DNA of 54,329 bases from an uncultured Spirochaetales bacterium (GCA_964413375.1 CAYPSI010000075.1:1-54329); one strand, 5' to 3'; shown: positions 23,134 to 54,327, counted from the stretch's first letter. The notes: generated from the sequence alone by a model not told the origin. A program made the numbers and translations.

Positions 23134-23234
23134 TGAGGACGAGGGCTCGAGGTCCGAGGACGAGGGCTCGATTCGAGAGGCCGTGCCCACTCCGCTCGCC
23201 TTCGGCTCGCTGCGCGCGCGCTTCGCGCGCTTGC
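23134..23234 (+). repeat. Interspersed mini-hairpin repeat, full copy with duplicated head
   Basis: Head GAGGACGAGGGCTCGA twice (23135, 23156), then the core CACTCCGCTCGCCTTCGGCTCGCTGCGCGCGCGCTTCGCGCGCTTGC. Confidence 0.9.
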
Positions 23235-23322
23235 AGGTCCCGGTTCGGGATCGGGAGCGACGCGAATCAGGAGGCCGGTGCGCGTGGGGTAGCTCTCGCG
23301 GTGGTGCGCGGGGCGGTGTAGA

Positions 23323-23844
23323 TTGCCGGGCGTGGGGGGTTTGGCGCCGATCGATGTGGCGGCGCTCGCGATCCTCGGGATCGCGGCATTCCGCGGGCTT
23401 GCCCTCGGTCTCGTCCGAGAATCCTTCTCCGTCGGCTCGATCGGGATCGCCTATATGGCGGTCGTGCTCTACGCGGATCGCCTCGCGCAGTGGATCGAGC
23501 GCGAGACGAACGGCGAGGTGGGCGCGCTCGTCGCTCCCTGGGTCGCCGGCGCGGCGATCGTGGTCGCCGGCATCGCGGCGGCAGTGATCCTCGGGCGGCT
23601 CGCCAAACGCGGCGCGAGGCTCGCGGGCCTCGGCTGGATCGACCGCGCGGGCGGTGTCGTGCTCGGCTCGGCCGAGGGCCTGCTGGTGGTCGGAATCCTG
23701 CTGTCGATCGCGGCGGCGATCCTCGGGCGCGAGCACCCGGTGATCGCAAGCTCGCGCAGCCTGGTGGCCTTCGAGCGCTTCCAGCACCTCGCCGAAGCGG
23801 GCGAATGGTCGCTCCCGGACGTGGCGGCGCGCCCGAAGTCGTAG
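23323..23844 (+). CDS. cvpA: CvpA family membrane protein
   Basis: IDVAALAIL...AFRGLALGLVRE, GLGWIDRAGGVVLGSAEG, SRS; 4 TM helices. Start may be GTG 23332. Confidence 0.85.
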   Translation: MPGVGGLAPIDVAALAILGIAAFRGLALGLVRESFSVGSIGIAYMAVVLYADRLAQWIERETNGEVGALVAPWVAGAAIVVAGIAAAVILGRLAKRGARLAGLGWIDRAGGVVLGSAEGLLVVGILLSIAAAILGREHPVIASSRSLVAFERFQHLAEAGEWSLPDVAARPKS

Positions 23845-23881
23845 CTGGGCCCCCCGCTCAACCAGGCGAGCGGGTTGGGCA

Positions 23882-23911
23882 ACCCGCCCGCCCCGCCCGC
23901 CCGCCCGCCCC
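23882..23911. repeat. (CCCG)n simple repeat, G-tract-rich on the minus strand
   Basis: ACCCGCCCGCCCCGCCCGCCCGCCCGCCCC; the minus strand carries seven G3/G4 runs with 1-nt linkers. Confidence 0.8.
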
Positions 23912-23921
23912 GAACGGACCC

Positions 23922-24021
23922 GCAAGGCCGCGAAGCGGCCGCGCAGCGAGCCGAAGGCGAGCGGAGTGGGCAGGGCCTCCCGATTCGAGCCCTCGTCCTC
24001 GGACCTGAGCCCTCGTCCTCA
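23922..24021 (-). repeat. Interspersed mini-hairpin repeat, full copy, inverted relative to 23134-23234
   Basis: Reverse complement TGAGGACGAGGGCTCAGGTCCGAGGACGAGGGCTCGAATCGGGAGGCCCTGCCCACTCCGCTCGCCTTCGGCTCGCTGCGCGGCCGCTTCGCGGCCTTGC; it begins on the ispG TGA. Confidence 0.9.
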
Positions 24022-26028
24022 GACCTGATCTTCCCAGCGGCCGTGGGCGCGGATCAGCTCGACGAGCCGATCGGGTGCTTGCGCCTCGGGGACCTTGCGC
24101 TCGACGCAGTCCTTCCCGACGTAGAGATTCACGATGCCAGGCCCGGAGCCCACGTAGCCGAAGTCCGCGTCGGCCATCTCGCCCGGCCCGTTCACGATGC
24201 AGCCCATCACCGCGATCTTGACGCCCGGAAGATGCTGCGTGCGCAGCTTGATGCGCGCCGTCACTGCCTCGAGATCGAAGAGCGTGCGCCCGCAGGAGGG
24301 GCACGAGATGAACTCGGTGCGGGTCGTACGCTGGCGCGCGCCCTGGAGCACCCGGTAGCCGAGGTCGAGCGCCTGCGCCGCGTCTGCGAAGCCGGCAAGC
24401 GCAACGGCATCGCCGATCCCGTCCGCGAGCGGCACCCCGAGCTCGAGCCCGGCGCGCAGGCAGGTCTCCTCGTCGCTCGCGTCGGCCCGGCGTCGGTGCC
24501 GCAGCACGATCGGCGCGTCGCCAAGCCCCTGCGCGCGCAGGCGCGCAGCCGCGATGCGGACGGCCTGCACCGGCTGCTCCGCGTCGACCGAGAACGCGAG
24601 CGCCGTGGCGCCCGCCGCCGCGCTTGCGGCGAGACAGCGGTCGACGAGCCGGGGGATCTGCGCGACCTCGGCGCGCAGCTCCCACTCGAGCGGCACCCGT
24701 CGGCGCGCCGCACAGGTCGCCGCCGCGGAGAGCTCGACATCCGTCACCAGCGCCCCGGCCATCGCCACGATGCGCCCGGCCGCCACCGAGGCGCGCTCGG
24801 CCCAACCGGCCTCCACCCGGACGGCGAGTGGCAGCTCGATCCCGGCCGCAGCGAGGGCCTTCGCAAAGGCCTCGAGACGCTCCCCCGCGCCAGGATCGAG
24901 GCACTCGACGAGGATCCCCTCACAGGCGAGGCCGCGCGCCCGGAAGAACGCGCGCGCGAGGGAACGGGCCGTCCCAGCGGGATCCGTCGACACCGGACCC
25001 AGGTCGAGCTCGACGCGAACCGGGTTCTCGCCGCCGATCTCGAGGTCGCCGCCGCCGATCGGGCGCGTGGAGCGGCGACGCGGCGCGAGCGGATCGTCGA
25101 TGGTCGCGGCCCCGGGGTCCCCGGGATCGGCCGTGGCACGCGCGAGCGTCGCCTCCGCAAGCCGCGCCAGCTCCCTGGCGACTGGGATCTCCTTCACGGG
25201 ATCCTCGGTCAGCGAGACGCGGATCGTGTCGCCCAGGCCGTCGAGCAGCAGCGCCCCGATCCCGATCGCGCTCTTGACGCGGCCGTCCTCGCCGTCTCCG
25301 GCCTCGGTCACACCGACGTGGAAGGGATAGGAGGCTTGCCCGGGTGCGCGCTCCTCGAGCCGGAGGGCCAGGAGTCGATAGGCCTGGATCGCCACCAGCG
25401 GATTGCTGGCCTTCATGCTGAAGACGACGTCGCGATAGCCCTCGCCCTCGCAGACGTCGAGGAACTCGAGGGCGCTCTCGACCATGCCGCGCGGCGAATC
25501 GCCGTAGCGATTCATGATCCGGTCGGAGAGCGAGCCGTGGTTGGTGCCGATGCGAAGCGCCCGCCCGAGCTCCTTGCAGCGGCGCACGAGCGGCCGGAAG
25601 CGCTCCGCCACGCGCTCGATCTCCGTCTGGTACTCGGCGTCCTCGTACTCGCGGACGGCGAACTTCTTCTTGTCGGCGTAGTTGCCGGGGTTGATCCGGA
25701 CCTTCTCCACGTGCTCCGCGGCGATCAGCGCGGCGCCCGGGGTGAAGTGGATGTCGGCCACGAGAGGGACCCGGACGCCGCGCGCGGCGAGCGCCGCGCG
25801 GATCTCCGGCAGCTTCTCGGCCTCGCGCAACGAGGGCACCGTGAGGCGCACGATCTCGCAGCCGGCCGCGACGAGCCGCTCGATCTGCGCGACGCACCCG
25901 AGCGTGTCGAGCGTGTCGGTGGTCAGCATCGACTGCAGGCGGAGCGGATTCGCACCGCCCACGCCGACGTCGCCGACGCGCACCTCGCGGGTCGCGCGGC
26001 GTCGCGGAGAGAAGGGGCTCGCCCTCAT
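24019..26028 (-). CDS. ispG: (E)-4-hydroxy-3-methylbut-2-enyl-diphosphate synthase, long three-domain form
   Basis: RLQSM, PLVADIHF, KVRINPGNY, RIGTNHGSLS, HVGVTEAG, DTIRVSLT; Fe-S ligands SCPSCGR and MGCIVNGPGE; 669 aa. Confidence 0.96.
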   Translation of the reverse strand: MRASPFSPRRRATREVRVGDVGVGGANPLRLQSMLTTDTLDTLGCVAQIERLVAAGCEIVRLTVPSLREAEKLPEIRAALAARGVRVPLVADIHFTPGAALIAAEHVEKVRINPGNYADKKKFAVREYEDAEYQTEIERVAERFRPLVRRCKELGRALRIGTNHGSLSDRIMNRYGDSPRGMVESALEFLDVCEGEGYRDVVFSMKASNPLVAIQAYRLLALRLEERAPGQASYPFHVGVTEAGDGEDGRVKSAIGIGALLLDGLGDTIRVSLTEDPVKEIPVARELARLAEATLARATADPGDPGAATIDDPLAPRRRSTRPIGGGDLEIGGENPVRVELDLGPVSTDPAGTARSLARAFFRARGLACEGILVECLDPGAGERLEAFAKALAAAGIELPLAVRVEAGWAERASVAAGRIVAMAGALVTDVELSAAATCAARRRVPLEWELRAEVAQIPRLVDRCLAASAAAGATALAFSVDAEQPVQAVRIAAARLRAQGLGDAPIVLRHRRRADASDEETCLRAGLELGVPLADGIGDAVALAGFADAAQALDLGYRVLQGARQRTTRTEFISCPSCGRTLFDLEAVTARIKLRTQHLPGVKIAVMGCIVNGPGEMADADFGYVGSGPGIVNLYVGKDCVERKVPEAQAPDRLVELIRAHGRWEDQV

Positions 26029-31664: not shown

Positions 31665-31684
31665 CGCGCCCCTCGGGCGTTCGC

Positions 31685-32789: not shown

Positions 32790-33509
32790 CTAGATGGGGT
32801 GATGAACTCGTCCGGCGCCGAGCGGAACCCGCTCGAGCGGCAAGTAGAGCGAGCCGGCAGACGAGAGCTCGCTGCGGAACAAGACGGCTTGCTCGACCGC
32901 GAGCTCCGCTGCGGGAAGCGCCAGCGCCGCGACGCTCGGAAAGCTTCGCTCCTTCACGCGTCCGAGCGTGAGGTGGGCGCGGAAGGGGCGCTCCTCGGGA
33001 GGGAAGCCCTCCGCGACTACGGCGCGCTCGAGCGCCGCTGCGAGCTCCAGCAGCGGAGCGGTGGGCTCGAGCCCGAGTGCTACGACGCGCGGCCTGCGCG
33101 GCGATGGAAAGAGCTCGGCAGGCCCGAGCTGAAGCGCGAAGGGGCGCAGCGTCGCGAGCTCCTCCGATGCCCGGCGTGCGAGCGGAGCGGCGGCGCTGGC
33201 CTCGATCTCGCCCAGGAAGCGCAGCGTCACGTGCAGCGCCTCCGGACGGACCCAGCGCACGCCGTCGCCGCCGGGATCCTGCTGCAGCCGCTGCGCGACG
33301 GCCGCCGCGACCCGCCGCGCGTCGGCGCCGAGCTCGATCGCGAAGAACGCACGGATCTGGCCTGACTCACTTCGCTCGCCTGCGGCTCGCTGCGCGCTTC
33401 GCTTGCGAGACTCACTTCGCTCGGCTGCCCGGGGACGTTGCGTCGATTCGACCGGCTGTTGGCCACTCCGCTCGCCTGCGGCTCGCTGCGCGCTTCGCTT
33501 GCGATCCAC
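32790..33509 (-). CDS. thpR: RNA 2',3'-cyclic phosphodiesterase (2H family) with a repeat-derived N-terminal extension
   Basis: [31 protein letters not shown]; GTG 33509 with GAGGAG 8 nt upstream; lies between cinA and recA. Confidence 0.88.
33368..33406 (+). repeat. Mini-hairpin repeat core (inside the thpR 5' region)
   Basis: CACTTCGCTCGCCTGCGGCTCGCTGCGCGCTTCGCTTGC; a truncated third start follows at about 33413. Confidence 0.88.
33464..33502 (+). repeat. Mini-hairpin repeat core (inside the thpR 5' region)
   Basis: CACTCCGCTCGCCTGCGGCTCGCTGCGCGCTTCGCTTGC. Confidence 0.88.
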
Positions 33510-38505: not shown

Positions 38506-40458
38506 TCAGCCGCGCGCAGCGGCGTGCCGCTGCACCACGGCGAGCAGTCCCTCGCCATAGCGCGCGATACGCGCGGGCCCCATGCCGTAGAGCGGCTCCA
38601 GGTCTGCCGGCGTGCGGGGCTTCCAGCGGACGATCTCGGCGAGCGTGCGGTCGTGCGCAACCACGTAGGGCGGGACCCCGGCGGCCCGCGCAAGCGCGAG
38701 GCGCTGCGCGCGTAGCGCCTCCCACAGCACGCGGTCGCCCGCGCCAAGATCGCGCGCCTCGACGCCGGGGCGGCGCTCGGAACGCGACGGGGGTGCGCCC
38801 TCCCCCAGCGTCCGCGGCGCGGCGCGATCGGAGCGGCCAGCGCCGGCGCGATCCGGAAGCTCGATGCGCGCCGGCCGATCGGCATGCATCACCGCGCGGC
38901 CGGCCTCCGTGAGTCGAACGACCGGACGGCGATCGCCTTCGAAGTCGACCCAGCCCGCGGTGACGCAGCGTCGCAGCAGGCGTTGCAGCCAGTCGGCGTC
39001 GCGCTCCGCGAGGATCCCGAAGGTCGGCGTCCGGTCGAGTCCACTTCGCGTGAGTCGCTCATCGGCCGAACCGCGCAGCAGCGCGACGGCCGCACCGAGG
39101 CCGAAGCGCCCCTCGACGCGCGCGACCGCAGAGAGCGCCTTGCGCACCAGCAGGGTCGCGTCTTCGGCGTCGACCTCGCTTGCGTCGCCTGTCGCCTGCA
39201 GACGCGTGCAGACGTCGCAGATGCCGCAGCCCGAGAGCGTCTCGGCCTCGTCTCCGAAGTAGCGCAGGATGGCGTCGTGCCGGCAGCTGCCCCCTTCGGC
39301 CCAGCGCACGAGCTCGAGGAAGAGTCCCCACTTGTGCTCCACCACCTCTCGCGCGGGGGCCCCGCCGTCGGCGGCCGTCTCGATCAGGCGCCGCCGCAGC
39401 GGCAGATCGTTCGGCGCCCAGAGCAGCAGCCCGAGCGCGCGCGAGCCGTCGCGGCCGGCGCGCCCGACCTCCTGGTAGTAGGCTTCGAGCGAGCCGGGCG
39501 GCCCGAGGTGCACGACGGCGCGCACGTCGGACCGATCGATTCCCATGCCGAAGGCGTTGGTCGCGACCACGACCTCGAGCGTCCGGGACGTGAAGGCCCG
39601 CTGCACCTCCTCGCGCATCGCCCCGCCCTGGCCCGCGTGGTACGCGCGCGCCCGCCAGCCCTGCCCTGCAAGTCGCAGCGCTTCCTCCTCGGCGCCGCGC
39701 CGGCTCGGCGAGTACACGATCGCGGCGCCGCGCCCCTGCCCCGGCGCGGCGAGCGCCTCGGCGAGGGCCGCGTCGACCAGCGAGCGCCGCTCCCGCGCGC
39801 CCGAGACCTCCCTCGCGCGCAGCGAGAGCTCGGGGCGCGCGAAGCCGTGGACGAGCTGTGGCGTATCCGCGGGCAGGCCGAGCCGGGCCAGGATCTCGTC
39901 GCGGACGACGGGCGTCGCGGTTGCGGTGCACGCGAGCAGGCGCGCCTTCGGGAGCGCAGCCACCACCTCGCCGAGGTTCAGGTACTCCGGGCGGAAGTCG
40001 TGCCCCCACTCGCTGATGCAGTGAGCCTCGTCGACGGCTAGGAGCGGGCATTCGAGATCCATCGCGAGCGAGCGGAAGCCCGGGAGTGCCAGCCTCTCGG
40101 GAGCGACGAAGACGAGCGAATAGTCGCCCCGCGCGATACCCGCGAAACGGCGCCGCGCTTCGCCCGCATCGAGCGTCGAGGCGAGGTAGGTCGCGTCGAT
40201 CCCGACGCGCTGGAGCGCATCCACCTGATCCTGCATCAGCGCAATCAGCGGCGAGACGACGAGGGTCGTTCCCGGAAGGATGCAAGCGGGGAGCTGGTAG
40301 CACAGGCTCTTGCCGCCGCCCGTCGGCGCCACGAGGAGCAGACGGCCGACCGACAGGAGTGCCTCGATCGCCTCCCGCTGACCGGCGCGAAAAGTCGAGT
40401 GCCCGAAGCGAGCGAGTGCCGCGTCGAGAGCCTGGCCTGCGCGAGTGTCTGCGTTCAT
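38506..40458 (-). CDS. recQ: ATP-dependent DNA helicase RecQ
   Basis: PTGGGKSLCYQLP, DEAHCISEWGHDFRP, TATAT, ATNAFGMGIDR, YYQEVGRAGRDG; Zn motif CRH...CGICDVC; RQC and HRDC (VPPYVVAHDRTL). Start MNADT at ATG 40458. Confidence 0.96.
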   Translation of the reverse strand: MNADTRAGQALDAALARFGHSTFRAGQREAIEALLSVGRLLLVAPTGGGKSLCYQLPACILPGTTLVVSPLIALMQDQVDALQRVGIDATYLASTLDAGEARRRFAGIARGDYSLVFVAPERLALPGFRSLAMDLECPLLAVDEAHCISEWGHDFRPEYLNLGEVVAALPKARLLACTATATPVVRDEILARLGLPADTPQLVHGFARPELSLRAREVSGARERRSLVDAALAEALAAPGQGRGAAIVYSPSRRGAEEEALRLAGQGWRARAYHAGQGGAMREEVQRAFTSRTLEVVVATNAFGMGIDRSDVRAVVHLGPPGSLEAYYQEVGRAGRDGSRALGLLLWAPNDLPLRRRLIETAADGGAPAREVVEHKWGLFLELVRWAEGGSCRHDAILRYFGDEAETLSGCGICDVCTRLQATGDASEVDAEDATLLVRKALSAVARVEGRFGLGAAVALLRGSADERLTRSGLDRTPTFGILAERDADWLQRLLRRCVTAGWVDFEGDRRPVVRLTEAGRAVMHADRPARIELPDRAGAGRSDRAAPRTLGEGAPPSRSERRPGVEARDLGAGDRVLWEALRAQRLALARAAGVPPYVVAHDRTLAEIVRWKPRTPADLEPLYGMGPARIARYGEGLLAVVQRHAAARG

Positions 40459-40522
40459 CTCCCTGCGTCGACGGGGCGAAGTGCGCGATGCTAGCGGCGC
40501 TTTCCCGATGTGTCGCTTGGGA

Positions 40523-41503
40523 TCAGCGTGCGGAGGGCGGCTGCTGCTGGCCGAGGATCCAGCCTTCGATCTGCCGGATCTCGGGATCGGCGGGTTCGCC
40601 CGCGGGACGCTGGCCCAGCACGACGTCGAGCATTGCGAGGAGAGCCAGCGTGGCGTCGAAACGGTCTTCCCCGTCGGGTTTCGAGCCGAAGCCGTCGGCG
40701 AAGGCGGCCTGCAGCTCCGGCTCGAGCTCGACGCCGAGCCGAGTTGCGAACTCGAGTACACGCGGAAGCTGCGCGGCTCGCACCGCCTGCACGCGTTTTC
40801 CCCGCGCACCGCCTGCGGAGACCGCGGCTAGATCGAGGCCCAGATGCGCGTAGGCCTCGGCCGGATAAGTCTCCGCGACGACCGTGCGCCCTGGCGCGAG
40901 CAGCTCCGCGAGCGAACCCTCGAAGGGCCAGAGCGCGACGTCGAGGGCGCCGCGCAGCGCCGGGATCAGCGCGTCGCGCCAGCCGGAGATCGCGGCCTTT
41001 CCCACCTGCTGCGCACCGAGCGTCCAGAAGAGCGGGGCCGCTGCGCGGCGCAGCGGCGTCGCCCGTTCGCAGACCCGAAGCAGCTCGTCCATCGAGGCGA
41101 CGCCGAGGCCCGCTACGAGCTGGGCCTGCGAGCTAACACCCGGCCTCGCCGGGTAGAAGGGGCGCAGGATCGAGATCTCCTCGGGTCGTTCCGCCACCTC
41201 GAAGAAGGGGCCGGCGAGGCTCGGCAGCAGCGTGCGGAACGCGCGTACGCGGGCCTGGCGCGCGTAGGCGAGCGGAAGACCGATCGGGAAGTCGAAGCCC
41301 GCGAGGACGACGCCGCGGGGCCCGGCCTCGGCCGCGAGATCGGCCAGCAGCCGATCGGGTGCGGCCACCGGCGAAGGACCCTGCGCCCGCCAGCCGCGAC
41401 CCTGGCGCTTCGCGCGGGCGAGCCAGCGCTTGCCCGGAGTCGCGCCCCAGTCGGCGTGTGCGACGAGTGTCGGAGGCGTGGGGAGGGTGGACGTGGCACT
41501 CAC
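40523..41503 (-). CDS. DUF429-like predicted RNase H-fold nuclease
   Basis: VAHADWG, AGFDFPIGLP, FWTLGAQQVGKAA, VAETYPA, EDRFDA. Start GTG 41503. Confidence 0.7.
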   Translation of the reverse strand: MSATSTLPTPPTLVAHADWGATPGKRWLARAKRQGRGWRAQGPSPVAAPDRLLADLAAEAGPRGVVLAGFDFPIGLPLAYARQARVRAFRTLLPSLAGPFFEVAERPEEISILRPFYPARPGVSSQAQLVAGLGVASMDELLRVCERATPLRRAAAPLFWTLGAQQVGKAAISGWRDALIPALRGALDVALWPFEGSLAELLAPGRTVVAETYPAEAYAHLGLDLAAVSAGGARGKRVQAVRAAQLPRVLEFATRLGVELEPELQAAFADGFGSKPDGEDRFDATLALLAMLDVVLGQRPAGEPADPEIRQIEGWILGQQQPPSAR

Positions 41504-42599: not shown

Positions 42600-42743
42600 C
42601 GCCCTTGCGCCCCTCCCACCGCGCGCCGTCGCGGCCTGTGGGCTGCTGTATCGGCGAATGAGCGGCAGGAGTTGAGCGGACGCTGCGTCGCGTGAAGGCT
42701 TCTCGCGGGCCAGAGGGCCGAGGGGCCAATCGGGTCGACCGAC

Positions 42744-42852
42744 GCGCAGCGAAGCGCTGCCGAGCCGAGGTCAGCGACAGGCAAGCGAAGCGCGCAGCGA
42801 GGCGAAGCCGAGCGGAGTGGGCTGCCCTCGACCGGTTCGAGCCCTCGTCCTA
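42744..42852 (-). repeat. Mini-hairpin repeat, full copy plus a degenerate partial copy
   Basis: Reverse complement TAGGACGAGGGCTCGAACCGGTCGAGGGCAGCCCACTCCGCTCGGCTTCGCCTCGCTGCGCGCTTCGCTTGC starts on the pafA TAG; extra GCGCAGCGAAGC at 42744-42755. Confidence 0.88.
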
Positions 42853-44256
42853 AGACTGGATCACGAGCTTCGAGAGGCTCGTCTTGCGCAGGTTGGTCTT
42901 CTGGATCGTCCGCACCAGCTCGGCGACCTTCTCGATGTCCGTCTCGAACGGATTGTTGCAGATCACGCGGACGTTGAGCAGGTTGCCGAGCCGGATGTTC
43001 GACCAGTCGAGGTCGTACTGGATCGAGTTCTGGCGGGCGAGCTTGATGAACTCGCCGCGCATGCGCGCGCGGGTGTCCGGCGGCGGCTCGGTCTTGGCCT
43101 TGATGATCTCTTCATCCTCGAGCACCCGCTCCACGCGGCCGTTCTTCTCGAGCAGGTAGTAGAGGCCCCGGTTCATGCGGATGTCGTGGTACTGGAGGTC
43201 GAGCATGAAGACGCGGGGGTCGTTCCACGTCGTGTTGCGCGAGTCGACATAGGACTGGATCATCCGGCGCTTGATCAACCAGTCGACTTCGCGGTCGAGC
43301 TTGTCGGGATCCGTGTCGAGGCAGTCGAGGACGTGCTGCCACATCGTCACCGCCTGGCGCACCTGGTCCGAGACCGGATACTGCTCGATGTACTTCTGGG
43401 CCATCTCGCAGTACTCGCGCTGGATGTTGATCGGCGAGTACTCGCGCCCGTTGTCGAGCCGGAGCTTGCGCTTGCAGGTGACGTCGTAGGAGATGTCCTT
43501 GATCGCCTTCACCGGGTTGCGCAGCGTGAAGTCCTGGTTGATGTAGTTGTCCTCGATCATCTGGAGGACGACGGCGCAGGTCCCGATCTTCAGGAAGTTC
43601 GTGTAGTCGGACATGTTGGAGTCGCCGACGATCACGTGCAGCCGTCGGTACTTCTCCCGGTCCGCGTGGGGCTCATCGCGCGTGTTGATGATCGACCGGT
43701 CGTTCGTCGTAGTGCCGGAGATCTTCTGGTAGATGTGCTGCGCGCGCTGGCTGATGCAGTAGTGGATCCCATCCTGCGTCTGGAAGACCTTCCCGGCTCC
43801 GGTGTAGATCTGTCGGGTCACGAGGAAGGGGATCAGCTGCTCGGCCAGGTAGTAGAAATCGACGTCGCGGTCCACGAGGTAGTTCTCGTGGCAACCGTAG
43901 GAGTTTCCGACGAAATCGGTGTTGTTCTTGAAGATCGAGAGCTTCCCGGTGATGCGCTCCTCGCGGATCTTCTCCTCCGCATAGAGCTGGAGGTCCTCGA
44001 GGATCCGCTCGCCCGCCCTGTCGTAGAGAACGACCTGGCGGGGCGAGGCGCATTCGGGCGTCGCGTACTCGGGGTGGCAGCCGGTGTCCTGATAGAAGCG
44101 GGCGCCGTTCTCCAGGAAGACGTTCAGGAAGTGCTCGGTGGTGATCAGCTTCTCGAACAAGAAGCGGATCGCCTTCTCGACGGGGAGCGTCTTCCGCCCT
44201 TCGGGCGTGAAGATGATCCCATACTCCGTCTCGATACCGTAGATCCGCTTCTGCAC
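42850..44256 (-). CDS. pafA: Pup--protein ligase PafA
   Basis: RIYGIETEYG, FLENGARFYQDTGCHPEYATPEC, GNSYGCHENY, RSIINTRDEPHAD, RRLHVIVGDSNMS, DLQYHDI, PPPDTRA. Confidence 0.93.
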   Translation of the reverse strand: MQKRIYGIETEYGIIFTPEGRKTLPVEKAIRFLFEKLITTEHFLNVFLENGARFYQDTGCHPEYATPECASPRQVVLYDRAGERILEDLQLYAEEKIREERITGKLSIFKNNTDFVGNSYGCHENYLVDRDVDFYYLAEQLIPFLVTRQIYTGAGKVFQTQDGIHYCISQRAQHIYQKISGTTTNDRSIINTRDEPHADREKYRRLHVIVGDSNMSDYTNFLKIGTCAVVLQMIEDNYINQDFTLRNPVKAIKDISYDVTCKRKLRLDNGREYSPINIQREYCEMAQKYIEQYPVSDQVRQAVTMWQHVLDCLDTDPDKLDREVDWLIKRRMIQSYVDSRNTTWNDPRVFMLDLQYHDIRMNRGLYYLLEKNGRVERVLEDEEIIKAKTEPPPDTRARMRGEFIKLARQNSIQYDLDWSNIRLGNLLNVRVICNNPFETDIEKVAELVRTIQKTNLRKTSLSKLVIQS

Positions 44257-44284
44257 GCTCGCCGCCCGACCGGCTATCTGTCCC

Positions 44285-44983
44285 CTAAGTCCCCAGGTGC
44301 TCCCGAAGTGTATCGGTGTCCAGACGCCGGAACTTTCGCCCCACGCGATGGCGCTCGAGCAGGCAGACCTCGAGGTTGTCGGCCGTCACGTTCGGCTCCC
44401 TGTCCGCGGCCCGCTGCAAGGCCCGGTAGCCGAGGAGCAGGGCCTCCCTGAGGGGAAGGCCGTCCCGGAACTCGGATCGCAACAGACTCCCGAGCTCCTC
44501 CGCGGCACCCCCGATCACGCAGAACCCTTCGTAGTCGCTGATGCTGCCGTCGAACTGCACGCGGTAGATGGCGTTGTTTTCGTGCCCGGCCAGGGTGTCG
44601 TCCCCCACCTCGGCCACGATCACCTCCACCTCGAGCGGCTTGAGCTCCCGGGTAAACACCTCACCCATGGCTTGAGAATAGGCGTTCGCCAGCCCCTTCG
44701 CTCGCACGTCGTCCCGGCTGTAGGCGTAGCCGCGTGTGTCGGCGTAGCGCACGCCGAGCTTCCGCAGCTGATCGAACTCGCTGAACTTGCCGACGCCGGC
44801 GAAGGCGATCCGGTCGTAGATCTCCCCGATCTTGGAGAGCGAGGAGGGATTCTCCGCCATCAGCAGGACACCCTCGTCGTACTGGAGTGTGACGCTGGAC
44901 TTGCCGCGGGCGATGCCCTTGCGGGCAAACTCCGCCTTGTCCTGCATCACCTGTTCGGGGGAGACGTAGAAGGGCATCGTCAT
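44285..44983 (-). CDS. prcA: 20S proteasome alpha subunit (actinobacterial type)
   Basis: MPFYVSPEQVMQDKAEFARKGIARGKS, KIGEIYDRIAFAGVGKFSEF, KPLEVEVIVAEVG, RKFRR; ATGA overlap with prcB. Confidence 0.95.
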   Translation of the reverse strand: MTMPFYVSPEQVMQDKAEFARKGIARGKSSVTLQYDEGVLLMAENPSSLSKIGEIYDRIAFAGVGKFSEFDQLRKLGVRYADTRGYAYSRDDVRAKGLANAYSQAMGEVFTRELKPLEVEVIVAEVGDDTLAGHENNAIYRVQFDGSISDYEGFCVIGGAAEELGSLLRSEFRDGLPLREALLLGYRALQRAADREPNVTADNLEVCLLERHRVGRKFRRLDTDTLREHLGT

Positions 44984-45795
44984 CGGCGTCCTCCCCGCGC
45001 CGGAACCCGGCGGCGCGCTCCGAGGATCTCCCGATAGATCCGGTCCATCTCCTCGTCTCCCGCCCGTTCGATTCCGCCTTCCGAACAGAAGTACACGAGC
45101 GGGTAGATTCCCCGCTCGAGATCGACCCCGCCCGTGGCGCGGTCCTCGTCGGAGGCATCGGCGAGTGCCTGGAGCGCGGCGCGCAGGCCTCCGTCGCGCG
45201 ACGCAGAGGCGTCGTAGGACTTCTTGAGCGACTCCCGGGCATAGAGCCCCCCGGAGCCGGTGGCCTCGTACTCGGTCTCTTCGTAGCGTCCGCCGGTCAC
45301 GTCGAACTTCCACAGGCGTCCCTGTCGCCGGCGAAGGTCGTAGCCGGCGAAGAGCGGCACCACCACGAGGCCCTGCATCGCGGCGGGGAGGTTCGCGCGC
45401 ACCATCTGCGAGAGCCGGTTGGCCTTGCCGTCGAGCTCGAGTCGATCGCCTTCGATCTTTTCGTAGTGCTCGAGCTCGATCCGCATCAACCGCGCCATCT
45501 CGAGCGCCGGCCCGGCCGCGCCGGCAATGGCGATCAGCGAGTAATCGTCCGTGGCGAGCACCTTCTCGAGATCGCGGGACGCGACGCGGTGCCCCTCCGT
45601 CGCGAGGCGGTCACCCGCGACGATGACTCCGTCGGCGTACTTGAACGCCAGCACGGTGGTACCGTGCGGTACCTGCTCGAGGTCGAGCCCCGGCGCGGAG
45701 AGCCGGCTCCAGTCCGGTACGAGCTGTGTGTGATCGACTGCCAGGAGCTCGTTGAAGCTCGAGCCCTGGTACTTGCCGCCGAAGCTGATCGGCAA
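44980..45795 (-). CDS. prcB: 20S proteasome beta subunit with propeptide
   Basis: SSFNELL...PHG/TTVLAFKYADGVIVAGDRLAT, IAGAAG, ELEHYEKIEG, ATGSGG; TTG 45795 with a purine-rich SD. Confidence 0.95.
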   Translation of the reverse strand: MPISFGGKYQGSSFNELLAVDHTQLVPDWSRLSAPGLDLEQVPHGTTVLAFKYADGVIVAGDRLATEGHRVASRDLEKVLATDDYSLIAIAGAAGPALEMARLMRIELEHYEKIEGDRLELDGKANRLSQMVRANLPAAMQGLVVVPLFAGYDLRRRQGRLWKFDVTGGRYEETEYEATGSGGLYARESLKKSYDASASRDGGLRAALQALADASDEDRATGGVDLERGIYPLVYFCSEGGIERAGDEEMDRIYREILGARRRVPARGGRR

Positions 45796-45930
45796 CGCCC
45801 CCCCCTTCTTTCGGGTCTCGGCGGGGGCCCGCACCCTGCCCGGCTTCGCCGCGCTGCTGGGCCGCTGCTCAGCCCTTGCGGTCGGCCCGCCCCCTCCGTC
45901 CGGCCCGACCGTAGCAGCCCTACGCTGTGC

Positions 45931-46200
45931 CTACTGGCCGCCCCGCTGAACGTAGTTCTTGACGAACTCCTCGGCGTTCTCCTCGAGGACCTCGTCGATC
46001 TCGTCCACCAGGGCGTCCATCTCCTCCTTCAGCTCCTTGCCCTTCTTGGCGAGCTTCTGGGATCCGGAGGCATCCTTGTCCTCGCCTTCTCCGCCGCCCC
46101 GCTTGGGCGTCTTCTTCTGGGTCGACTCGGCCGCGCCGTAGATCGGGAAGGCATCTCCCGCCACCTCGCGCTTCGGGCTCGTCGTCCTGAACATTCTCAT
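45931..46200 (-). CDS. pup: Prokaryotic ubiquitin-like protein Pup (C-terminal GGQ)
   Basis: ...KRGGGEGED...EMDALVDEIDEVLEENAEEFVKNYVQRGGQ-stop; lies between dop and prcB. Start ambiguous (46200, 46194 or GTG at EVAG). Confidence 0.95.
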   Translation of the reverse strand: MRMFRTTSPKREVAGDAFPIYGAAESTQKKTPKRGGGEGEDKDASGSQKLAKKGKELKEEMDALVDEIDEVLEENAEEFVKNYVQRGGQ

Positions 46201-46222
46201 GGCGCCCCCGCGTCGCGCGCCG

Positions 46223-47707
46223 CTAGGCGCGCAGGTTCCTCACCAGATCCGCCGCCGTCGGAGACTGGTTCAAGAGCTCCTCCACGTGCACCCGCGAGCC
46301 CTTGAGAGGCTCGGCCATCAGGATCCGCCTGATGGGCTCCTCATCGACGCTGAAGGAGATCGAATCCCAGTTCACGCCGAACACGGCCGAGCCGTAGCGC
46401 CGCAGACACTCACCCCGGAAATAGGCCCGTGTGTCCTCCGGCGGCTTGCCGATCGCGAGGGCGATCTCCGCATCCGTGACGATCCGCTCGGCCCTGCCCT
46501 GCCGTTCGAGCATGTAGTATAGGCCCTTGTCGGGCCGGAGGTCGTGGTACTGGAGGTCCAGCATCTGGACCTGCGGGGCGTCCCACGAGAGCGACTTCCG
46601 CTGCATGAAGCTCTCGATCATCGCCTTCTTCATCACCCAGTCGACCTGACGCTCGAGCTCCATCGGATCGCGGCGCAGGGACTCGATGGCACTCTGCCAT
46701 TTGACGAGCACGTCCTCCGTCTCCGCCGACAGCTCGCGGCCAGCGCAGTAGGCCAGAGCCATCTCGAGGTACTCCGCCTGGATCTCGACGGCGCTGAGCC
46801 GCTTGCCGTTCTCGAGGTGGAGCGCACGCCGGCAATCCGGGTCGTGGGACACCTCCTTGATGGCGGCCACGGGATCGCGAAGCGCCAGGTTCTTCCGGAT
46901 GGCGCCGTCCTCGATCATCGAGAGGACGAGGGCCGTGACGCCCGTGCGCAGGTAGATCGTGTACTCCGAGAGGTTCGCGTCGCCCACGATCACGTGAAGA
47001 CGCCGGTACTTCTCCCGGTCTGCGTGCGGCTCGTCGCGCGTATTGATGATCGGGCGCTTCACCATCGTGTCGAGCGCCACCTCGGTTTCGAAGAAATCAG
47101 CGCGCTGCGAGATCTGGAAATCACAGGGGTGAGCGCGGTTCTCGCTACCCACCTTGCCCGCGCCGCAGTAGACCTGGCGCGTCACGAAAAAGGGCATCAG
47201 ATGTTCGACGATCTGCTTGAAGGAGGTCCGGCGGTCCATGAGAAAATTCTCGTGGGCGCCGTAGCTATTGCCCTTCCGATCGCTGTTGTTCTTGTAGAGC
47301 AGCATCTCGGCGCCGGCGGGCAGCAGGCTCGAGGCCTCGCGCCGGCTGGCCTCGAGAATTCGCTCGCCCGCCTTTTCATGGATCACGAGTTCACGCGCGT
47401 TCGTGACCTCCGGACAGGAATACTCCGGGTGCGCGTGGTCCACATAGTAGCGCGCGCCGTTGACGAGAGTTTTGTTGCGGGCGATGTTCTCCTGCTGGTT
47501 CGGGGTGTACTTCTCCCCGTCGACCTGGAAGCCCCGCGCGTCGGCCAGCGGATTCTCCTGATCGTAGTCCCACAAGATCTCGCCGTAGTGCTCCTCCCGG
47601 TAACAGTTGACGAGGAGGACGCAGCTCGAGATCGGGTCGAAGTCGGGATCCCCCTTGACGGTGATCCCGTACTCGATCTCCGAGCCCATCACCTTCGGAA
47701 TGGCCAT
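46223..47707 (-). CDS. dop: Pup deamidase/depupylase Dop
   Basis: KVMGSEIEYG, Dop loop WDYDQENPLADARGF, NGARYYVDHAHPEYSCPE, NNSDRKGNSYGAHEN, RPIINTRDEPHAD, PPEDTRAYFRG. Confidence 0.94.
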   Translation of the reverse strand: MAIPKVMGSEIEYGITVKGDPDFDPISSCVLLVNCYREEHYGEILWDYDQENPLADARGFQVDGEKYTPNQQENIARNKTLVNGARYYVDHAHPEYSCPEVTNARELVIHEKAGERILEASRREASSLLPAGAEMLLYKNNSDRKGNSYGAHENFLMDRRTSFKQIVEHLMPFFVTRQVYCGAGKVGSENRAHPCDFQISQRADFFETEVALDTMVKRPIINTRDEPHADREKYRRLHVIVGDANLSEYTIYLRTGVTALVLSMIEDGAIRKNLALRDPVAAIKEVSHDPDCRRALHLENGKRLSAVEIQAEYLEMALAYCAGRELSAETEDVLVKWQSAIESLRRDPMELERQVDWVMKKAMIESFMQRKSLSWDAPQVQMLDLQYHDLRPDKGLYYMLERQGRAERIVTDAEIALAIGKPPEDTRAYFRGECLRRYGSAVFGVNWDSISFSVDEEPIRRILMAEPLKGSRVHVEELLNQSPTAADLVRNLRA

Positions 47708-47734
47708 GCATTCTCCCGCGCCATGCGCGCGCGC

Positions 47735-49576
47735 CTAGAGATACTGGCCCGAGGTGATGTTTTCAATCGATCGCTCCTTGCGGCTGATCCCCGTCATCAG
47801 CGTGCGCACGTTGATGATGCGCTCGCCCTTTCGGCCGGAGATGCGGGCCCAGTCGTCCGGGTTGGTGGTGTTCGGGAGATCCTCGTTCTCCTTGAACTCG
47901 TCGTTCACGGCCTCGAGGAGATCGTCGAACTGGATACCCCGCTCGCCGTGGCTGATCGTCCGCTTCACGGCCTTCTTCTTGGCGCGCGCGACGATGTTCT
48001 GGATCATCGCGCCGCTCGAGAAGTCCTTGAAGTAGAAGATCTCGCGCTCGCCCTTCGCGTAGGTCACCTCGAGGAACTTGTTCTCCTCGCTGGCGGCGTA
48101 CATGCGGGTGATCGTCTCCTCGATCATGCCTGACGCGATCTTCGCCGTGTCTTCCCCGTAGCGCTGAGCCGCCGTGGCGTGGAAGGGCAGATCCGAGGTC
48201 AGGTACTTCGCGAAGATCTCCTTGGCGGCCTTCGCGTCGGGCCGATTCACCTTGATCTTCAGATCCAGGCGCCCGGGCCGCAGCACGGCGGGGTCGATCA
48301 GGTCCTGGCGATTGCTGGCGCCGATCACGATCACGTTCTTGAGCGACTCGACGCCGTCGATCTCGGACAGGAACTGGGCGACGACCGTTGCCTCCATGTC
48401 CGACGAGATCCCCGATCCGCGCATGCGGAAGAGTGAATCCATCTCGTCGAAGAAGATCACGACCGGGACGTCCTCGCTCGCCTTGTCGCGTGCCTTCTTG
48501 AAGACCTCTCGAAGCTTGTGCTCGGTCTCCCCGACGTACTTGTTCAGGAGTTCGGGGCCCTTCACGTTCAGGAAGTAGGGCGTCGTCCTCCGGCCGGTGC
48601 GCTGCTCGATGCTGCGCGCGAGGCTGTTGGCCACCGCCTTGGCGATCAGCGTCTTCCCGCAGCCCGGAGGGCCGTAGAGCAGGATGCCCTTCGGCGGCGA
48701 GAGCTTGTGCTCGGCGAAGACCTCCGGGTACATGTAGGGCAGCTCGACCGAGTCCCGCAGGATCTCGATCTGCTCGCCGAGCCCGCCGATGTTGTCGTAG
48801 GTCGTGTCGGGGATCTCCTCGAGCACCACCTCCTCGACCGCGGACTTCGGCAGCTTCTCGAAGGCGTAGTGCGTGCGCGGATCGTAGAGCACGTTGTCGC
48901 CGACCTTGAGCTTCTCGCGGCGCAGCGGCTCAGCCAGCGTCACGACGCGCTCGTCGTCCGTGTGGCCGAGCACGATGGCCCGATTGTCCGCGAGCAGATC
49001 GACGATCGAGACGACCTCACCGCGTGCGGTGAAGCCGGCCGGCTCCACCACGTTCATCGCCTCGTTGAGCACCACGAGCTGCCCTTCCTCGAGCGTGAAG
49101 GGGTCGAGGTTCGGGTGCACGTTCACGCGCATCGCGCGGCCGTCGACGAGGATCTCCGCGGTGCCGTCCTTGTTGGGCCGGTTGAAGATCCCGTAGGTAT
49201 TGGGAGGCGCGCAGAGCTTGTCGACCTCCTCCTTCAGGACCTCGATCTGCTGCTTCGCTTCCTGGAGGACGGCCACGAGGCGCTCGTTCTGGCGCTCCGA
49301 GTCCGCAGCCTGCTCGCGGGTGCTCTGGTAGCGGCGGCGAAGCGCGTCGAACTCGGCGATCAGCCGATCGAGCCGCCGGCGGAACTCCTCCGAATCGCTG
49401 CCGAAGACGCGGATCGCGTCCTGCAGGTCTTCGACCTCGTCCTGATGCGGCCGAGCCGGGCCGCGATCGCGGCCCGCATCGTTGGGATCTCCCGCGCGCG
49501 GGGCCGCCGCGGAGATCCGACGCATCACGTCGTGTACGAAGCCCTTCTTGGTCGATCCGGAATCCGCTTCGCTCAT
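47735..49576 (-). CDS. arc: Proteasome ATPase ARC/Mpa
   Basis: Coiled coil ...LKEEVDKLCAPPNTYG; OB domains; GPPGCGKT; VKGPELLNKYVGETE; FFDEMDS; SNRQDLIDPAVLRPGRLD; C-terminal GQYL. Confidence 0.96.
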   Translation of the reverse strand: MSEADSGSTKKGFVHDVMRRISAAAPRAGDPNDAGRDRGPARPHQDEVEDLQDAIRVFGSDSEEFRRRLDRLIAEFDALRRRYQSTREQAADSERQNERLVAVLQEAKQQIEVLKEEVDKLCAPPNTYGIFNRPNKDGTAEILVDGRAMRVNVHPNLDPFTLEEGQLVVLNEAMNVVEPAGFTARGEVVSIVDLLADNRAIVLGHTDDERVVTLAEPLRREKLKVGDNVLYDPRTHYAFEKLPKSAVEEVVLEEIPDTTYDNIGGLGEQIEILRDSVELPYMYPEVFAEHKLSPPKGILLYGPPGCGKTLIAKAVANSLARSIEQRTGRRTTPYFLNVKGPELLNKYVGETEHKLREVFKKARDKASEDVPVVIFFDEMDSLFRMRGSGISSDMEATVVAQFLSEIDGVESLKNVIVIGASNRQDLIDPAVLRPGRLDLKIKVNRPDAKAAKEIFAKYLTSDLPFHATAAQRYGEDTAKIASGMIEETITRMYAASEENKFLEVTYAKGEREIFYFKDFSSGAMIQNIVARAKKKAVKRTISHGERGIQFDDLLEAVNDEFKENEDLPNTTNPDDWARISGRKGERIINVRTLMTGISRKERSIENITSGQYL

Positions 49577-49946: not shown

Positions 49947-49953
49947 ATTTTGG

Positions 49954-49981
49954 AAGATATCAGACGACCCCCGACTGTCAA
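49954..49981 (-). promoter_or_regulatory. Strong sigma70-type promoter of the Pup-proteasome operon
   Basis: TTGACA(49981-49976)-N16-TATCTT(49959-49954), with extended -10 TG (TGaTATCTT). Confidence 0.72.
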
Positions 49982-50304: not shown

Positions 50305-51020
50305 TCACCGGGTGCCCGTAGCCGCGTCGAGGTCGAGCACCCGGACGCCCGGCGGGGGCTCGAAGCGGAAGAGCGACGCATCGGGGTCGCGATTCACCCG
50401 CAGGTCGCGCAGCGCGACCGTCGTGGCGTTGCCGAGCAGATCGATCACGGTGGTCTCGAGCAGCTCTCCCGAGCGCGGATCGATGCGGGCCTCGAGCCGC
50501 TCGTAGGTGGCAGCCTGGCGGGGCACGAGGTCGAGCCGTGCCGAGGCCTCTCCGCACTCGAGCGCCTTCACCTCGAAGTCTCGCAGGATCTCGCCTTCTC
50601 CGAGCAGGAAGGAGAGCGCCGCGCCGGAAAGGTAGGCCTCGGTCACGGTCAGACGCTGCGCCTCGCGGTTCGCGGCATCGTAGATCCACAGCTCTTTGCC
50701 GTCGCAGACGACGAGGCTCGGCTCGGGCTCCAGGTAGGTCCAGCGCATCCGGCCGGGCTTCGCGAAGACGACGCTGCCGCGAGACTTCGAGGTCGCACCG
50801 GGCTGCCCGAGCGCCACCGAGCGCGTCGACTGCTCGAAGCTGGCCTCGAGGTCGCGCACGGCCTCGTAGCGGCGCTGGAGGGCCTTTGCAGCGCGATCGG
50901 CGCAGTCGAGCCCCGCCTGTACAGGCGGGGCTGCGGCCGCCAGGGGCGCAACGGCAAGGCTCACGAGTGCGAGGACGCAGGCCCACACGTGGCGTTGGAC
51001 GCGGACCGGGCGCGCGAGCT

Positions 51021-51024
<4 letters not shown>
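50305..51024 (-). CDS. lolA: Outer-membrane lipoprotein carrier LolA
   Basis: Signal peptide; DLEASFEQ, GSVVFAKPGRMRWTY, LVVCDGKELWIYD, FRFEPPPGVRV; GTGA overlap with the ftsK stop. Confidence 0.92.
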
Positions 51025-53441
<2,417 letters not shown>

Positions 53442-53541
53442 GAAGCGCTCGGTTCGAGGCCAAGCCTCCCGCCCCCCTGGGAGGAACCACCGGAGAGTAC
53501 ATTCTTTAGGACGATGCCACGAATTGGTCGATGGCAGCCAT

Positions 53542-53578
53542 CTCCGCTCGCCTGCGGCTCGCTGCGCGCTTCGCTTGC
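53542..53578 (+). repeat. Mini-hairpin repeat core in the ftsK/ssb divergent region
   Basis: CTCCGCTCGCCTGCGGCTCGCTGCGCGCTTCGCTTGC. Confidence 0.88.
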
Positions 53579-53715
53579 TGCGCTACCGAATCCGGTTCGC
53601 GCCGTCGGGCGAACGGTGTTTGATCGGTGGGGCGAGGCCGAGCGTTCACAGTTGACGGCGCCGGTCGGGAACGGGATGCTACGGACATCCCCAGTCCCGA
53701 CGGAGAGCACTCCCC

Positions 53716-54156
53716 ATGGCAAGCGTCAATCGAGTCATCCTGGTCGGCAATCTCGGGCGCGATCCCGAGCTTCGTTACACGGCCGGTGGGCAGCCGGTCG
53801 CATCCTTCAGCGTCGCGACCAACGAGCGCTGGAACGATCGCGAGGGCAAGACCCAGGAGCGGACGGAGTGGCACCGCATCGTCGTCTGGGGAAAGCAGGG
53901 CGAGAACTGCGCCAACTACCTGCAGAAGGGCCGAACGGTCTACATCGAGGGTCGCCTGCAGACGCGCGAGTGGGAGGACAAGGAGGGCCAGAAGCGGCAG
54001 ACCACGGAGGTGGTGGCGCAGACGGTCCAGTTCCTCGATCGGCGCGACGGCGCAGCGCGCGGTGCCGGAGGCGCCGCCGGACCCGTCGGGCCCGCCGGCT
54101 CGTCCGAACCCGACCCCACTCCCGTTCCCACCGGCGGAGACGACATACCGTTCTGA
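53716..54156 (+). CDS. ssb: Single-stranded DNA-binding protein
   Basis: [42 protein letters not shown]; C-terminal GGDDIPF. Confidence 0.98.
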
Positions 54157-54225
54157 GGACGAGGGCTCGAGTCGGGAGGGGTTGCTCTCTCCGCTCGGCT
54201 TCGCCTCGCTGCGCGCTTCGCTTGC
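54154..54225 (+). repeat. Mini-hairpin repeat, full copy
   Basis: TGAGGACGAGGGCTCGAGTCGGGAGGGGTTGCTCTCTCCGCTCGGCTTCGCCTCGCTGCGCGCTTCGCTTGC; it begins on the ssb TGA. Confidence 0.9.
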
Positions 54226-54271
54226 TCGTCCCTCTCTGCCGTGATCGGGCGTCGCGAGCGCCCAGCACCCC

Positions 54272-54327
54272 AGCAAGGCGGCGAAGCCGTCGCGCAGCGA
54301 GCCGCAGGCGAGCGGAGAGGGCACGGT
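54272..54327 (-). repeat. Mini-hairpin repeat core, inverted partner of 54154-54225
   Basis: GCAAGGCGGCGAAGCCGTCGCGCAGCGAGCCGCAGGCGAGCGGAGAGGGCACGG. Confidence 0.88.

Follow-up and report, generated by a model that had tools for sequence, protein, structure and literature searches.

An apparently undescribed family of REP-like repeats in uncultured high-GC bacteria, with hairpins that may act as single-stranded DNA

We describe a family of short, non-coding, interspersed repeats in a 54,329-nt stretch of DNA from an uncultured Spirochaetales bacterium (GCA_964413375.1, CAYPSI010000075.1:1-54329), referred to below as the window. The family is real and apparently undescribed, and its hairpins covary. 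The explanation we favour, with about even confidence, is a DNA element of the repetitive extragenic palindrome (REP) or bacterial interspersed mosaic element (BIME) kind, belonging to an uncultured high-GC Myxococcota-type bacterium and acting as DNA. Judged from sequence, folding of the hairpins in single-stranded DNA (ssDNA) is plausible, and action as DNA is more likely than action as RNA. This reading is supported by a GNA loop and closing-pair rule, by 2-bp stems in the first hairpin of the unit (HP1), by the rarity of G·U pairs and by the occurrence of copies in both orientations relative to genes. It is also supported by the antisense position of the G-rich strand in the window, and by changes between strains that are confined to a G·T/G-C pair of HP1 and the free loop position of a second hairpin, HP3.

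A dispersed repeat family with covarying hairpins

A 37-45 nt core recurs in the window in eight full and two degenerate copies, all between 23.1 and 54.3 kb, and a copy is present at each of the eight positions proposed in an earlier account made without database searches (the sequence-only reading), which also quoted the core string correctly. With at most one mismatch allowed, the window has nine matches to the pattern GCGCAGCGA-N9-GAGCGGAG, whereas 100 shuffles predict 0.03. The eight full copies score 50-69 bits with a covariance model made from related copies; the model also picks up two more, a degenerate one in tandem at 42725-42769 (25 bits) and a weak, diverged copy at 45834-45879 (18 bits). 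The first 23 kb (1-23000), several intergenic spacers included, hold no copy, all ten lying in the remaining 31 kb. The copies found are all intergenic, no search aimed at intragenic ones having been made; intragenic copies are known for other REPs.

Read on its G-rich strand, the core comprises GCAA, HP1, the box GCGCAGCGA, HP3 and the box GAGCG(G/A)AG, usually followed by T. HP1 is a perfect hairpin that is free in sequence, with window stems of GC, GCGCGC, GGCCGC or GGCGGC around GAA and a stem length of 2-15 bp across the wider family, while HP3 has a 3-bp stem and a 3-nt loop and reads GCC-GNA-GGC or GGC-GNA-GCC. A middle “hairpin”, GC-GCA-GC, sits inside the GCGCAGCGA box and is invariant, loop C included, even in copies that were not selected for the box; because the box is invariant, this pairing lies outside the reach of covariation. 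The box is also predicted to fold in another way, as GC..GC around HP1 and as GC-GA-[HP3]-GA-GC around HP3 with two G·A mismatches. Tandem G·A mismatches in a 5'-CGAG-3' context favour the sheared form, which these would be expected to adopt; their counterparts on the complementary strand would be T·C mismatches.

Cores in the window belong to longer composites of about 75-110 nt each, in which the GGAG box is followed by one or two small variable hairpins and then by the reverse complement of T(G)AGGACGAGGGCTCGA. This last part includes the neighbouring gene's stop codon (ssb, Pup ligase and ispG in the window; the radC TGA in the strain contig L109), and three composites from metagenomes (L120, L131, L141) are likewise joined to a TGA or TAG. 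The accessory module partially and imperfectly repeats the core in inverted orientation, and RNAalifold predicts a long hairpin between it and the GGAG side of the core, formed mostly by invariant pairs (covariation term -0.44). These composites with their stop-codon overlap, the invariant middle mini-hairpin and the two degenerate copies go beyond the sequence-only reading. We also observed that the core lacks T on the G-rich strand and A on the other, so that all six frames are free of stop codons; its 45-nt form is divisible by three.

Covariation was assessed on an unbiased set of all sequences fitting GCAA-N15-GCGCAGCGA-N9-GAGCGRAG with any N, which comprised 22 distinct sequences, drawn from the window and from 16 other assemblies. 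Paired cells make up 97.9% of this set compared with 75.5% after shuffling, pairing falls to 20-56% when the partner is slid by 1-3 columns, and both members have changed in five of the six HP1 pairs and in one of the three HP3 pairs. For 135 distinct model-aligned copies, in an alignment that is fitted to the model and leans towards it, the values are 98.0% and 73.4%, with both-sided changes in seven of nine pairs. As a control, the 9-mers are non-palindromic where unrelated bacteria and viral contigs match the anchor pattern by chance. Covariation of HP1 and HP3 is real and strong, in the window as in about 150 further copies, and the hairpins are selected for pairing, which bears out the earlier claim of an interspersed palindromic family with covarying stems. 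The stem swaps then described, GCC/GGC for GGC/GCC in HP3 and GCGCGC/GCGCGC for GGCCGC/GCGGCC in HP1, are present, along with a further HP1 stem, GGCGGC/GCCGTC, that includes one G·T. G·U-type pairs account for about 0.5-1% of cells.

Loops, closing pairs and the DNA mini-hairpin rule

Loops in the window are exclusively GAA or GCA, as previously noted, but the family at large is more varied and a strict restriction to GNA does not hold. HP1 loops are GNA in 60 of 84 copies (71%; GAA 39, GCA 11, GGA 8, GTA 2), the others being CTT (6), TTT (3) and a mixture of tri- and tetraloops; of 118 HP3 loops, 101 (86%) are GNA, and AAA is also found among loops across the family. The background is far lower: the same loci have 3,468 other hairpins with a GC-only 4-bp stem and a 3-nt loop, and 4.4% of these carry GNA. 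Among GNA-looped copies the closing pair is C·G in 60 of 60 HP1 and 97 of 101 HP3 hairpins, the pair outside it being GC/GC in 46 and CC/GG in 14 for HP1, and GC/GC in 46 and CC/GG in 49 for HP3. The entire HP1 stem is 2 bp long in 29 of 84 copies.

Published work on DNA mini-hairpins found that GNA alone among all 64 triloops forms structure, that GC-GC and CC-GG stems work whereas CG-CG and GG-CC fail, and that d(GCGNAGC) melts at 76, 73, 71 and 70 °C for N = A, G, C and T, against 39 °C for r(GCGAAAGC); hairpins with TTC loops were not nuclease-resistant, and consecutive mini-hairpins were poorly bound by SSB (PMC13037366). The loop and closing-pair pattern of the family matches this rule, and the HP3 stem swap is simply its free second pair. 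The earlier proposal of a structure selected in ssDNA is strengthened by the closing-pair rule, although still unproven. A UUCG-tetraloop register, which the sequence-only reading had described as unpaired, forms at most one closing pair on the complementary strand, and a C(UUCG)G RNA tetraloop, which fits the GCCGCTTCGGC variant alone and not GCGGCGCTTCGCCGC, was dismissed as a rule for the family.

The same loops bear on the idea that the structure is not selected at all, and that GC palindromes are made and kept perfect by slippage, template switching or intra-hairpin repair and are spread by recombination. The stems are nearly perfect Watson-Crick helices with very few wobbles, and expansions at the tip would fit such a process: besides the 2-15 bp range of HP1, locus L141 (95-201, minus strand) has its HP3 loop replaced by the palindrome CCCGCGAGGG-CAG-CCCTCGCGGG, giving a 13-bp stem, and the copy number of accessory units varies between strains. 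HP1 forms nested stems with small internal loops in several genomes (L045, L033, L086), and palindromic growth at hairpin tips belongs to the evolution of the family. Unselected structure leaves unexplained, however, the 9-nt and 8-nt boxes that are identical in at least about 30 species-level metagenome-assembled genomes (MAGs), the excess of GNA loops and C·G closing pairs over background, and the dispersal to unrelated loci, and we rank it as the least probable of the explanations considered.

Conservation of GCGCAGCGA and GAGCGRAG in those MAGs, with variable hairpins between them and copies in both orientations, would also be expected from arrays of double-stranded binding sites for a host DNA-binding or nucleoid protein. 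The boxes hold GCGAGC twice, 11 bp apart, as well as GCAAGC, and the hairpins would serve as spacers. Spacers need not be palindromic, yet 98% of cells pair; stems of 2-15 bp would shift the spacing of the boxes; and the GNA and closing-pair rule is unexplained in duplex DNA. We consider binding-site arrays of this kind improbable.

Placement relative to genes

By a crude gene call based on G+C at third codon positions, flanking genes are in the same direction (>> 39, << 25), convergent (>< 35) or divergent (<> 19), and the GCAA end lies -1 to +3 nt from a stop codon in 16 of 54 cases. Copies occur in both orientations, as singletons, inverted pairs and direct tandems with variable spacings, pairs being no commoner than the rest; the inverted pair at 54189/54292 is 47 nt apart. 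Flanks upstream of GCAA show no conservation. The family thus displays the broad features of REPs, with a short palindromic compound unit and dispersed extragenic copies downstream of open reading frames (ORFs), near or over their stops. Di Nocera et al. describe REPs as intergenic and no more than about 20 bp from the 3' ends of ORFs, mostly with unidirectional or convergent neighbours; their termini often supply the stop codon, and they form dimers, clusters and associations with other short repeats (PMC3733652). Stop-codon overlap, being a known REP trait, is therefore not peculiar to the present family. Hallmarks of miniature inverted-repeat transposable elements (MITEs) were not found, the ends GCAAGC... 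and ...GAGCGGAGT not being complementary and the flanks showing no target-site duplication.

This placement would also suit an RNA-level element of 3' untranslated regions, with hairpins that are co-transcribed with the upstream gene and shield the mRNA 3' end, pause or terminate transcription, or act on terminating ribosomes by virtue of starting at the stop or a few nucleotides from it. Copies stand directly past stops, for the most part in unidirectional or convergent spacers; in the window and the three metagenome composites the stop and the accessory module are fused; and a similar pattern in known REPs has been taken as evidence for RNA function (PMC3733652). The small hairpins of the accessory module, moreover, keep their pairing through G·T on the gene-sense strand. 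Set against this, both orientations are common, so that the RNA loops would be GNA in some copies and UNC in others. In the window the G-rich (GNA) strand is always antisense to the gene whose stop the copy adjoins, and the mRNA would therefore carry UUC or UGC loops throughout, yet the GNA rule is kept on the other strand. Stems of 2 bp would have marginal stability in RNA (PMC13037366), very few G·U pairs occur, the hairpins are not followed by a U-tract, and Rfam gave no match. An RNA element is accordingly a doubtful explanation in our view, though a serious one. A selenocysteine insertion sequence or other recoding signal past the stop was rejected, as the stops include TAG and the C-termini are complete (SSB ...DDDIPF, Pup ...GGQ).

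Single-strand initiation or processing signals form another candidate, in which SSB-excluding mini-hairpins would be read by a primase, a PriA-type factor or RNA polymerase. CCGAAGG, GCGGAGC and GCGAAGC do such jobs in phage G4 origins, RSF1010 ssiA and N4 early promoters, and two consecutive mini-hairpins are poorly bound by SSB (PMC13037366). Such signals would not explain the placement at stop codons, and the copies show no orientation bias within contigs; we judge this candidate, if anything, marginally less probable than the double-stranded site arrays.

Distribution across genomes and strains

A scan of species-representative genomes returned at least 108 stretches, about 85 of those listed being true family members, from at least about 30 assemblies. 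The loci sampled around them amount to less than about 1% of any genome concerned, and contain, in 0.64 Mb, 166 further copies adjoining unrelated genes; CAZUYC01 alone provides 20 loci among the matches listed. Carrier MAGs are labelled Myxococcota, Myxococcales, Deltaproteobacteria or “delta proteobacterium”, with several high-GC ones labelled “uncultured Spirochaetales”. MAGs recorded as “uncultured Spirochaetales bacterium” that carry the repeat comprise CAZUYC01, CAYTJA01, CAZCTH01, CAZZFT01, CAZQYK01, CAYWRY01 and CAZTOE01 (loci L004, L019, L023, L025 and others); this record taxonomy looks doubtful, the sampled loci seeming G+C-rich by eye.

The fixed boxes do not vary across the species-level MAGs, unlike HP1, HP3 and the flanks. 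Modules past GGAG vary by lineage and include TCGAACAGNGGCCTC, TTCAYTCAGG, GCGGGCCCCCGC hairpins, or the GGACGAGGGCTCGA module of the window. Tandem arrays occur with periods of 45, 46, 54, 72 and 81 nt, and head-to-tail arrays with periods of 45, 46, 72 or 81 nt were located at L018 4587-4715, L090 1898-1979, L093 3497-3623, L067 5058-5242, L104 6927-7035 and L019 3056-3284. The units of these arrays differ at loop and stem positions and hence are not recent duplications. CRISPR was rejected as an identity for the tandem arrays, whose “spacers” are constant.

Viral contigs hold no family member, their four matches being chance ones with non-palindromic 9-mers, and PLSDB plasmids gave no match. 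In Rfam 15 a tRNA was the sole match at gathering score, and raising the E-value limit to 10 over two full copies yielded a chance match to mir-589 alone. The searchable literature, queried by sequence and by topic, gave no match to the family either, in keeping with the earlier suggestion that it is undescribed.

A metagenome scan for the composite (module, gap, core) returned 59 stretches, of which three are real (L120, L131, L141), chance matches arising because the gap is variable. Contigs nearly identical to the window come from the Joint Genome Institute (JGI) metagenomes 3300037264 and 3300037014; exact-protein look-ups with MreB and IspG for further strain contigs gave no record. Strains that are 99.4% identical over 6.2 kb carry copies at the same sites, and their cores differ in no way other than a G·T to G-C change in one HP1 stem and a C to T change at the free N of one HP3 loop. 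After the ssb stop (54154) the window has one copy of the 20-nt accessory unit GAGGACGAGGGCTCGGGTTC, whereas L109 (6038-6058) and L110 have two; this represents a tandem copy-number polymorphism between strains whose contigs are 96-99% identical. The strain contig L176 (1-60) lacks 44 nt that make up most of one core (copy C below) and lie between two ACTCACTTCGCTCG direct repeats (window 33380-33423); this difference may result from slippage or excision or, standing at a contig end, may be an assembly artefact. The same contig terminates inside a copy, and the repeats appear to break short-read assemblies.

A possible mode of action as DNA

In the reading that we favour, the G-rich strand, when single-stranded during replication, repair or negative-supercoil extrusion, would fold into two or three adjacent mini-hairpins. 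These would be C-GNA-G hairpins with a sheared G·A pair, HP3 probably being extended by tandem G·A pairs (GC-GA-[HP3]-GA-GC). A trans-acting protein would recognise hairpins and fixed boxes and copy or maintain the element; by analogy it might be an HUH/Y1-type single-strand nuclease. Insertions would survive only in short spacers just past stop codons, and any effect on neighbouring mRNA would be secondary.

Several observations weigh against this reading. The sequence-only reading had called the family REP-like, and its distribution agrees with that of REPs (PMC3733652), but the GTAG or CGTC tag of the described super-families is absent, no more than 4 of 103 copies having GTAG, CTAC, CGTC or GACG within 8 nt of an end. 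The copies also lack the within-contig orientation bias of lagging-strand-targeted IS200/IS605 elements. As stated earlier, there is no cognate transposase in the window: Pfam and NCBIfam scans of its approximately 45 ORFs identified housekeeping genes only. A tblastn search with E. coli RayT over the window and about 0.8 Mb of related loci found only chance matches and nothing credible, the best one (L019, E 0.77) falling in a cytochrome-c-like ORF. Clustering of 848 ORFs from the loci revealed no recurrent family beyond common domains, and ORFs enclosed by inverted copies are ordinary, none being transposase-like. Judged from their translations without a family search, the enclosed ORFs are BioB-like, methionine-aminopeptidase-like, PEP-CTERM or hypothetical, and those in the window and L109 encode CvpA and SSB (Pfam). 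At the sampling depth given above, these transposase negatives neither support nor exclude such an enzyme.

Further points concern the structure itself. Between 14 and 29% of loops are not GNA (24 of 84 in HP1, 17 of 118 in HP3), including the CTT/TTT class closed by G·C. Nearest-neighbour folding energies are no better than those of shuffles (z -1.8 to +1.2), with a DNA parameter set that may or may not credit GNA stability, and the strand asymmetry of wobbles is weak (10 G·T against 2 A·C). Both the tight link to stop codons and the two small accessory-module hairpins that stay paired only through G·T on the gene-sense strand fit an RNA role equally well.

A bolder version of action as DNA, which we think rather unlikely, is that a Myxococcota lineage carries hundreds to thousands of C-GNA-G clusters that fold in ssDNA only, exclude SSB and are read by a dedicated enzyme other than a REP-associated tyrosine transposase (RAYT). 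Candidates for that enzyme would be a primase, a factor in restart or repair, or a new HUH nuclease, and the clusters would then be a host-level single-strand signal and not a selfish REP. If true, DNA mini-hairpins would here have their first natural use on a genome scale.

REP-type repeats are abundant, and dispute persists over whether DNA, RNA or neither is the level at which they act. The present family offers a built-in discriminator, in that its loop and closing-pair rule matters for DNA hairpins and much less for RNA ones, and is kept even where the mRNA carries the opposite strand; the DNA-or-RNA question is therefore directly testable. It also widens the known range of REP-like elements to Myxococcota-type lineages, for which we found none described, and its combination of fixed boxes and expandable hairpins without a GTAG or CGTC tag may indicate a different partner enzyme.

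Repeat copies and genes of the window

In the following, strands are those of the window and bit scores those of the covariance model. Core copy A (23190-23234, minus strand, 67.8 bits) reads on its G-strand GCAA, HP1 GCGCGC-GAA-GCGCGC, GCGCAGCGA, HP3 GCC-GAA-GGC and GAGCGGAG. Its accessory module (23117-23189, plus strand) starts with a degenerate unit, TGACGATGGCTCGG, at the stop codon of a CBS gene (23117-23119), and continues with the exact units GAGGACGAGGGCTCGA at 23135-23150 and 23156-23171, after which come small spacer hairpins. Copy B (23922-23966, plus strand, 65.9 bits) consists of GCAA (23922-23925), HP1 GGCCGC-GAA-GCGGCC (23926-23940), the box GCGCAGCGA (23941-23949), HP3 GCC-GAA-GGC (23950-23958) and the box GAGCGGAG (23959-23966); its module (23967-24022, minus strand) has units at 23985-24000 and 24005-24020, the second holding the TGA stop of ispG/gcpE (24019-24021). 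The cvpA gene (23323-23844) is flanked by an inverted repeat of 91 nt, 91% complementary, at 23150-23240 and 23916-24006. A transposon around cvpA was rejected, the inverted repeat corresponding to two composite copies that belong to the neighbouring genes.

Copy C (33370-33406, minus strand, 49.9 bits), with a minimal HP1 of GC-GAA-GC, HP3 GCC-GCA-GGC and the box GAGCGAAG, starts 4 nt past the TGA of the upstream gene (33363-33365). Copy D (33466-33502, minus strand, 51.5 bits) is in tandem with it at a spacing of 96 nt, and between them, at 33410-33465 (minus strand, 10.4 bits), lie a truncated core fragment (ACTCACTTCGCTCGGC on the plus strand) and a degenerate accessory module, the latter including GGACGTTGCGTCGA at 33433-33446 and a small hairpin, GTCG-ATT-CGAC. 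The degenerate core at 42725-42769 (plus strand, 25.2 bits) is directly upstream of copy E (42781-42817, plus strand, 50.1 bits; HP3 GGC-GAA-GCC), whose module (42818-42853, minus strand) holds the TAG stop of a Pup-ligase gene (42850-42852) within TAGGACGAGGGCTCGA. The weak, diverged relative at 45834-45879 (minus strand, 18.3 bits, E 0.004) retains HP3 as GGC-GAA-GCC and lies between pup and the gene for the proteasome beta subunit.

Copy F (53542-53578, minus strand, 51.5 bits) occupies the divergent ftsK-ssb intergenic region, beside a diverged module (53507-53541, plus strand) composed of TAGGACGATGCCACGA and the hairpin GATGG-CAG-CCATC. Copy G (54189-54225, minus strand, 50.1 bits; HP3 GGC-GAA-GCC) has a module at 54154-54188 (plus strand), in which TGAGGACGAGGGCTCGA holds the ssb TGA stop (54154-54156). 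Head-to-head with it is copy H (54273-54317, plus strand, 69.1 bits; HP1 GGCGGC-GAA-GCCGTC with one G·T), which has a module running to 54329 that continues beyond the window edge; the counterpart of this module in L109 ends at the radC stop.

The window has a G+C content of 69.6% and is a housekeeping stretch of chromosome, with recA, alaS, ispG, mreB, recQ, ruvX, mltG, ftsK, ssb, pdxS, prs, rplY and a Pup-proteasome operon. The Pup-proteasome gene cluster is complete (42850-49576, minus strand), in a host whose repeat family points to Myxococcota. All on the minus strand, it encodes an ARC/Mpa-type AAA ATPase (47735-49576), a Pup-ligase-family protein, probably Dop (46223-47707), Pup, ending in GGQ (45931-46239), the proteasome beta (44980-45834) and alpha (44285-45313) subunits, and a second Pup-ligase-family protein, probably PafA (42850-44256). 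Direct repeats D6, D15 and D20 of the window are the two paralogous Pup-ligase-family genes and nothing more. ARAGORN and Rfam alike call a tRNA-Gln at 18717-18792. An 86-nt tRNA-Arg(CCG) called by ARAGORN at 38730-38815 (minus strand) overlaps mostly the 3' part of a recQ-like ORF (38506-40809), is not reported by Rfam and is probably a false positive.

Comparison with known systems

The closest likeness is to the REPs, REPINs and BIMEs of Enterobacteria and Pseudomonas, the REPs being GTAG-tagged and mobilised by RAYT Y1 transposases. Shared with them are short GC-rich intergenic palindromes at high local density, a position within about 20 nt of stops, which some copies themselves provide, mostly in unidirectional or convergent spacers, an arrangement as singletons, inverted pairs and clusters, a mosaic association with other motifs, and vertical persistence, as seen here in the copies that closely related strains hold at the same sites. 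The present family differs in having no GTAG tag, in combining two or three mini-hairpins with fixed single-stranded boxes where REPs have one stem of 8-12 bp, in stem lengths of 2-15 bp, and in a core that is identical across at least about 30 species-level MAGs as opposed to one genus. A second group, the CGTC-tagged REPs of Alphaproteobacteria (with Neisseria dRS3 and Rickettsia RPE-4/6), has a REP distribution, head-to-head dimers and clusters, and likewise no dedicated transposase is known for it (PMC3733652); its terminal CGTC, 8-9 bp stems beginning with A-T, 4-5 nt loops and CCA tail are all missing from the family described here. MITEs are also short, non-autonomous, dispersed and often structured, but the family has neither terminal inverted repeats nor a recognisable target-site duplication.

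With the mini-hairpins d(GCGNAGC) and d(CCGAAGG), the family shares the GNA triloop, the C·G closing pair and a minimum of two G-C pairs (PMC13037366). Those at phage G4-type origins, at RSF1010 ssiA (CCGAAGG) and at N4 early promoters (GCGGAGC) work only as ssDNA and exclude SSB (PMC13037366). Each occupies one site in a phage or plasmid and has a known reader (primase or the N4 virion RNA polymerase, vRNAP), whereas the family consists of many chromosomal copies.

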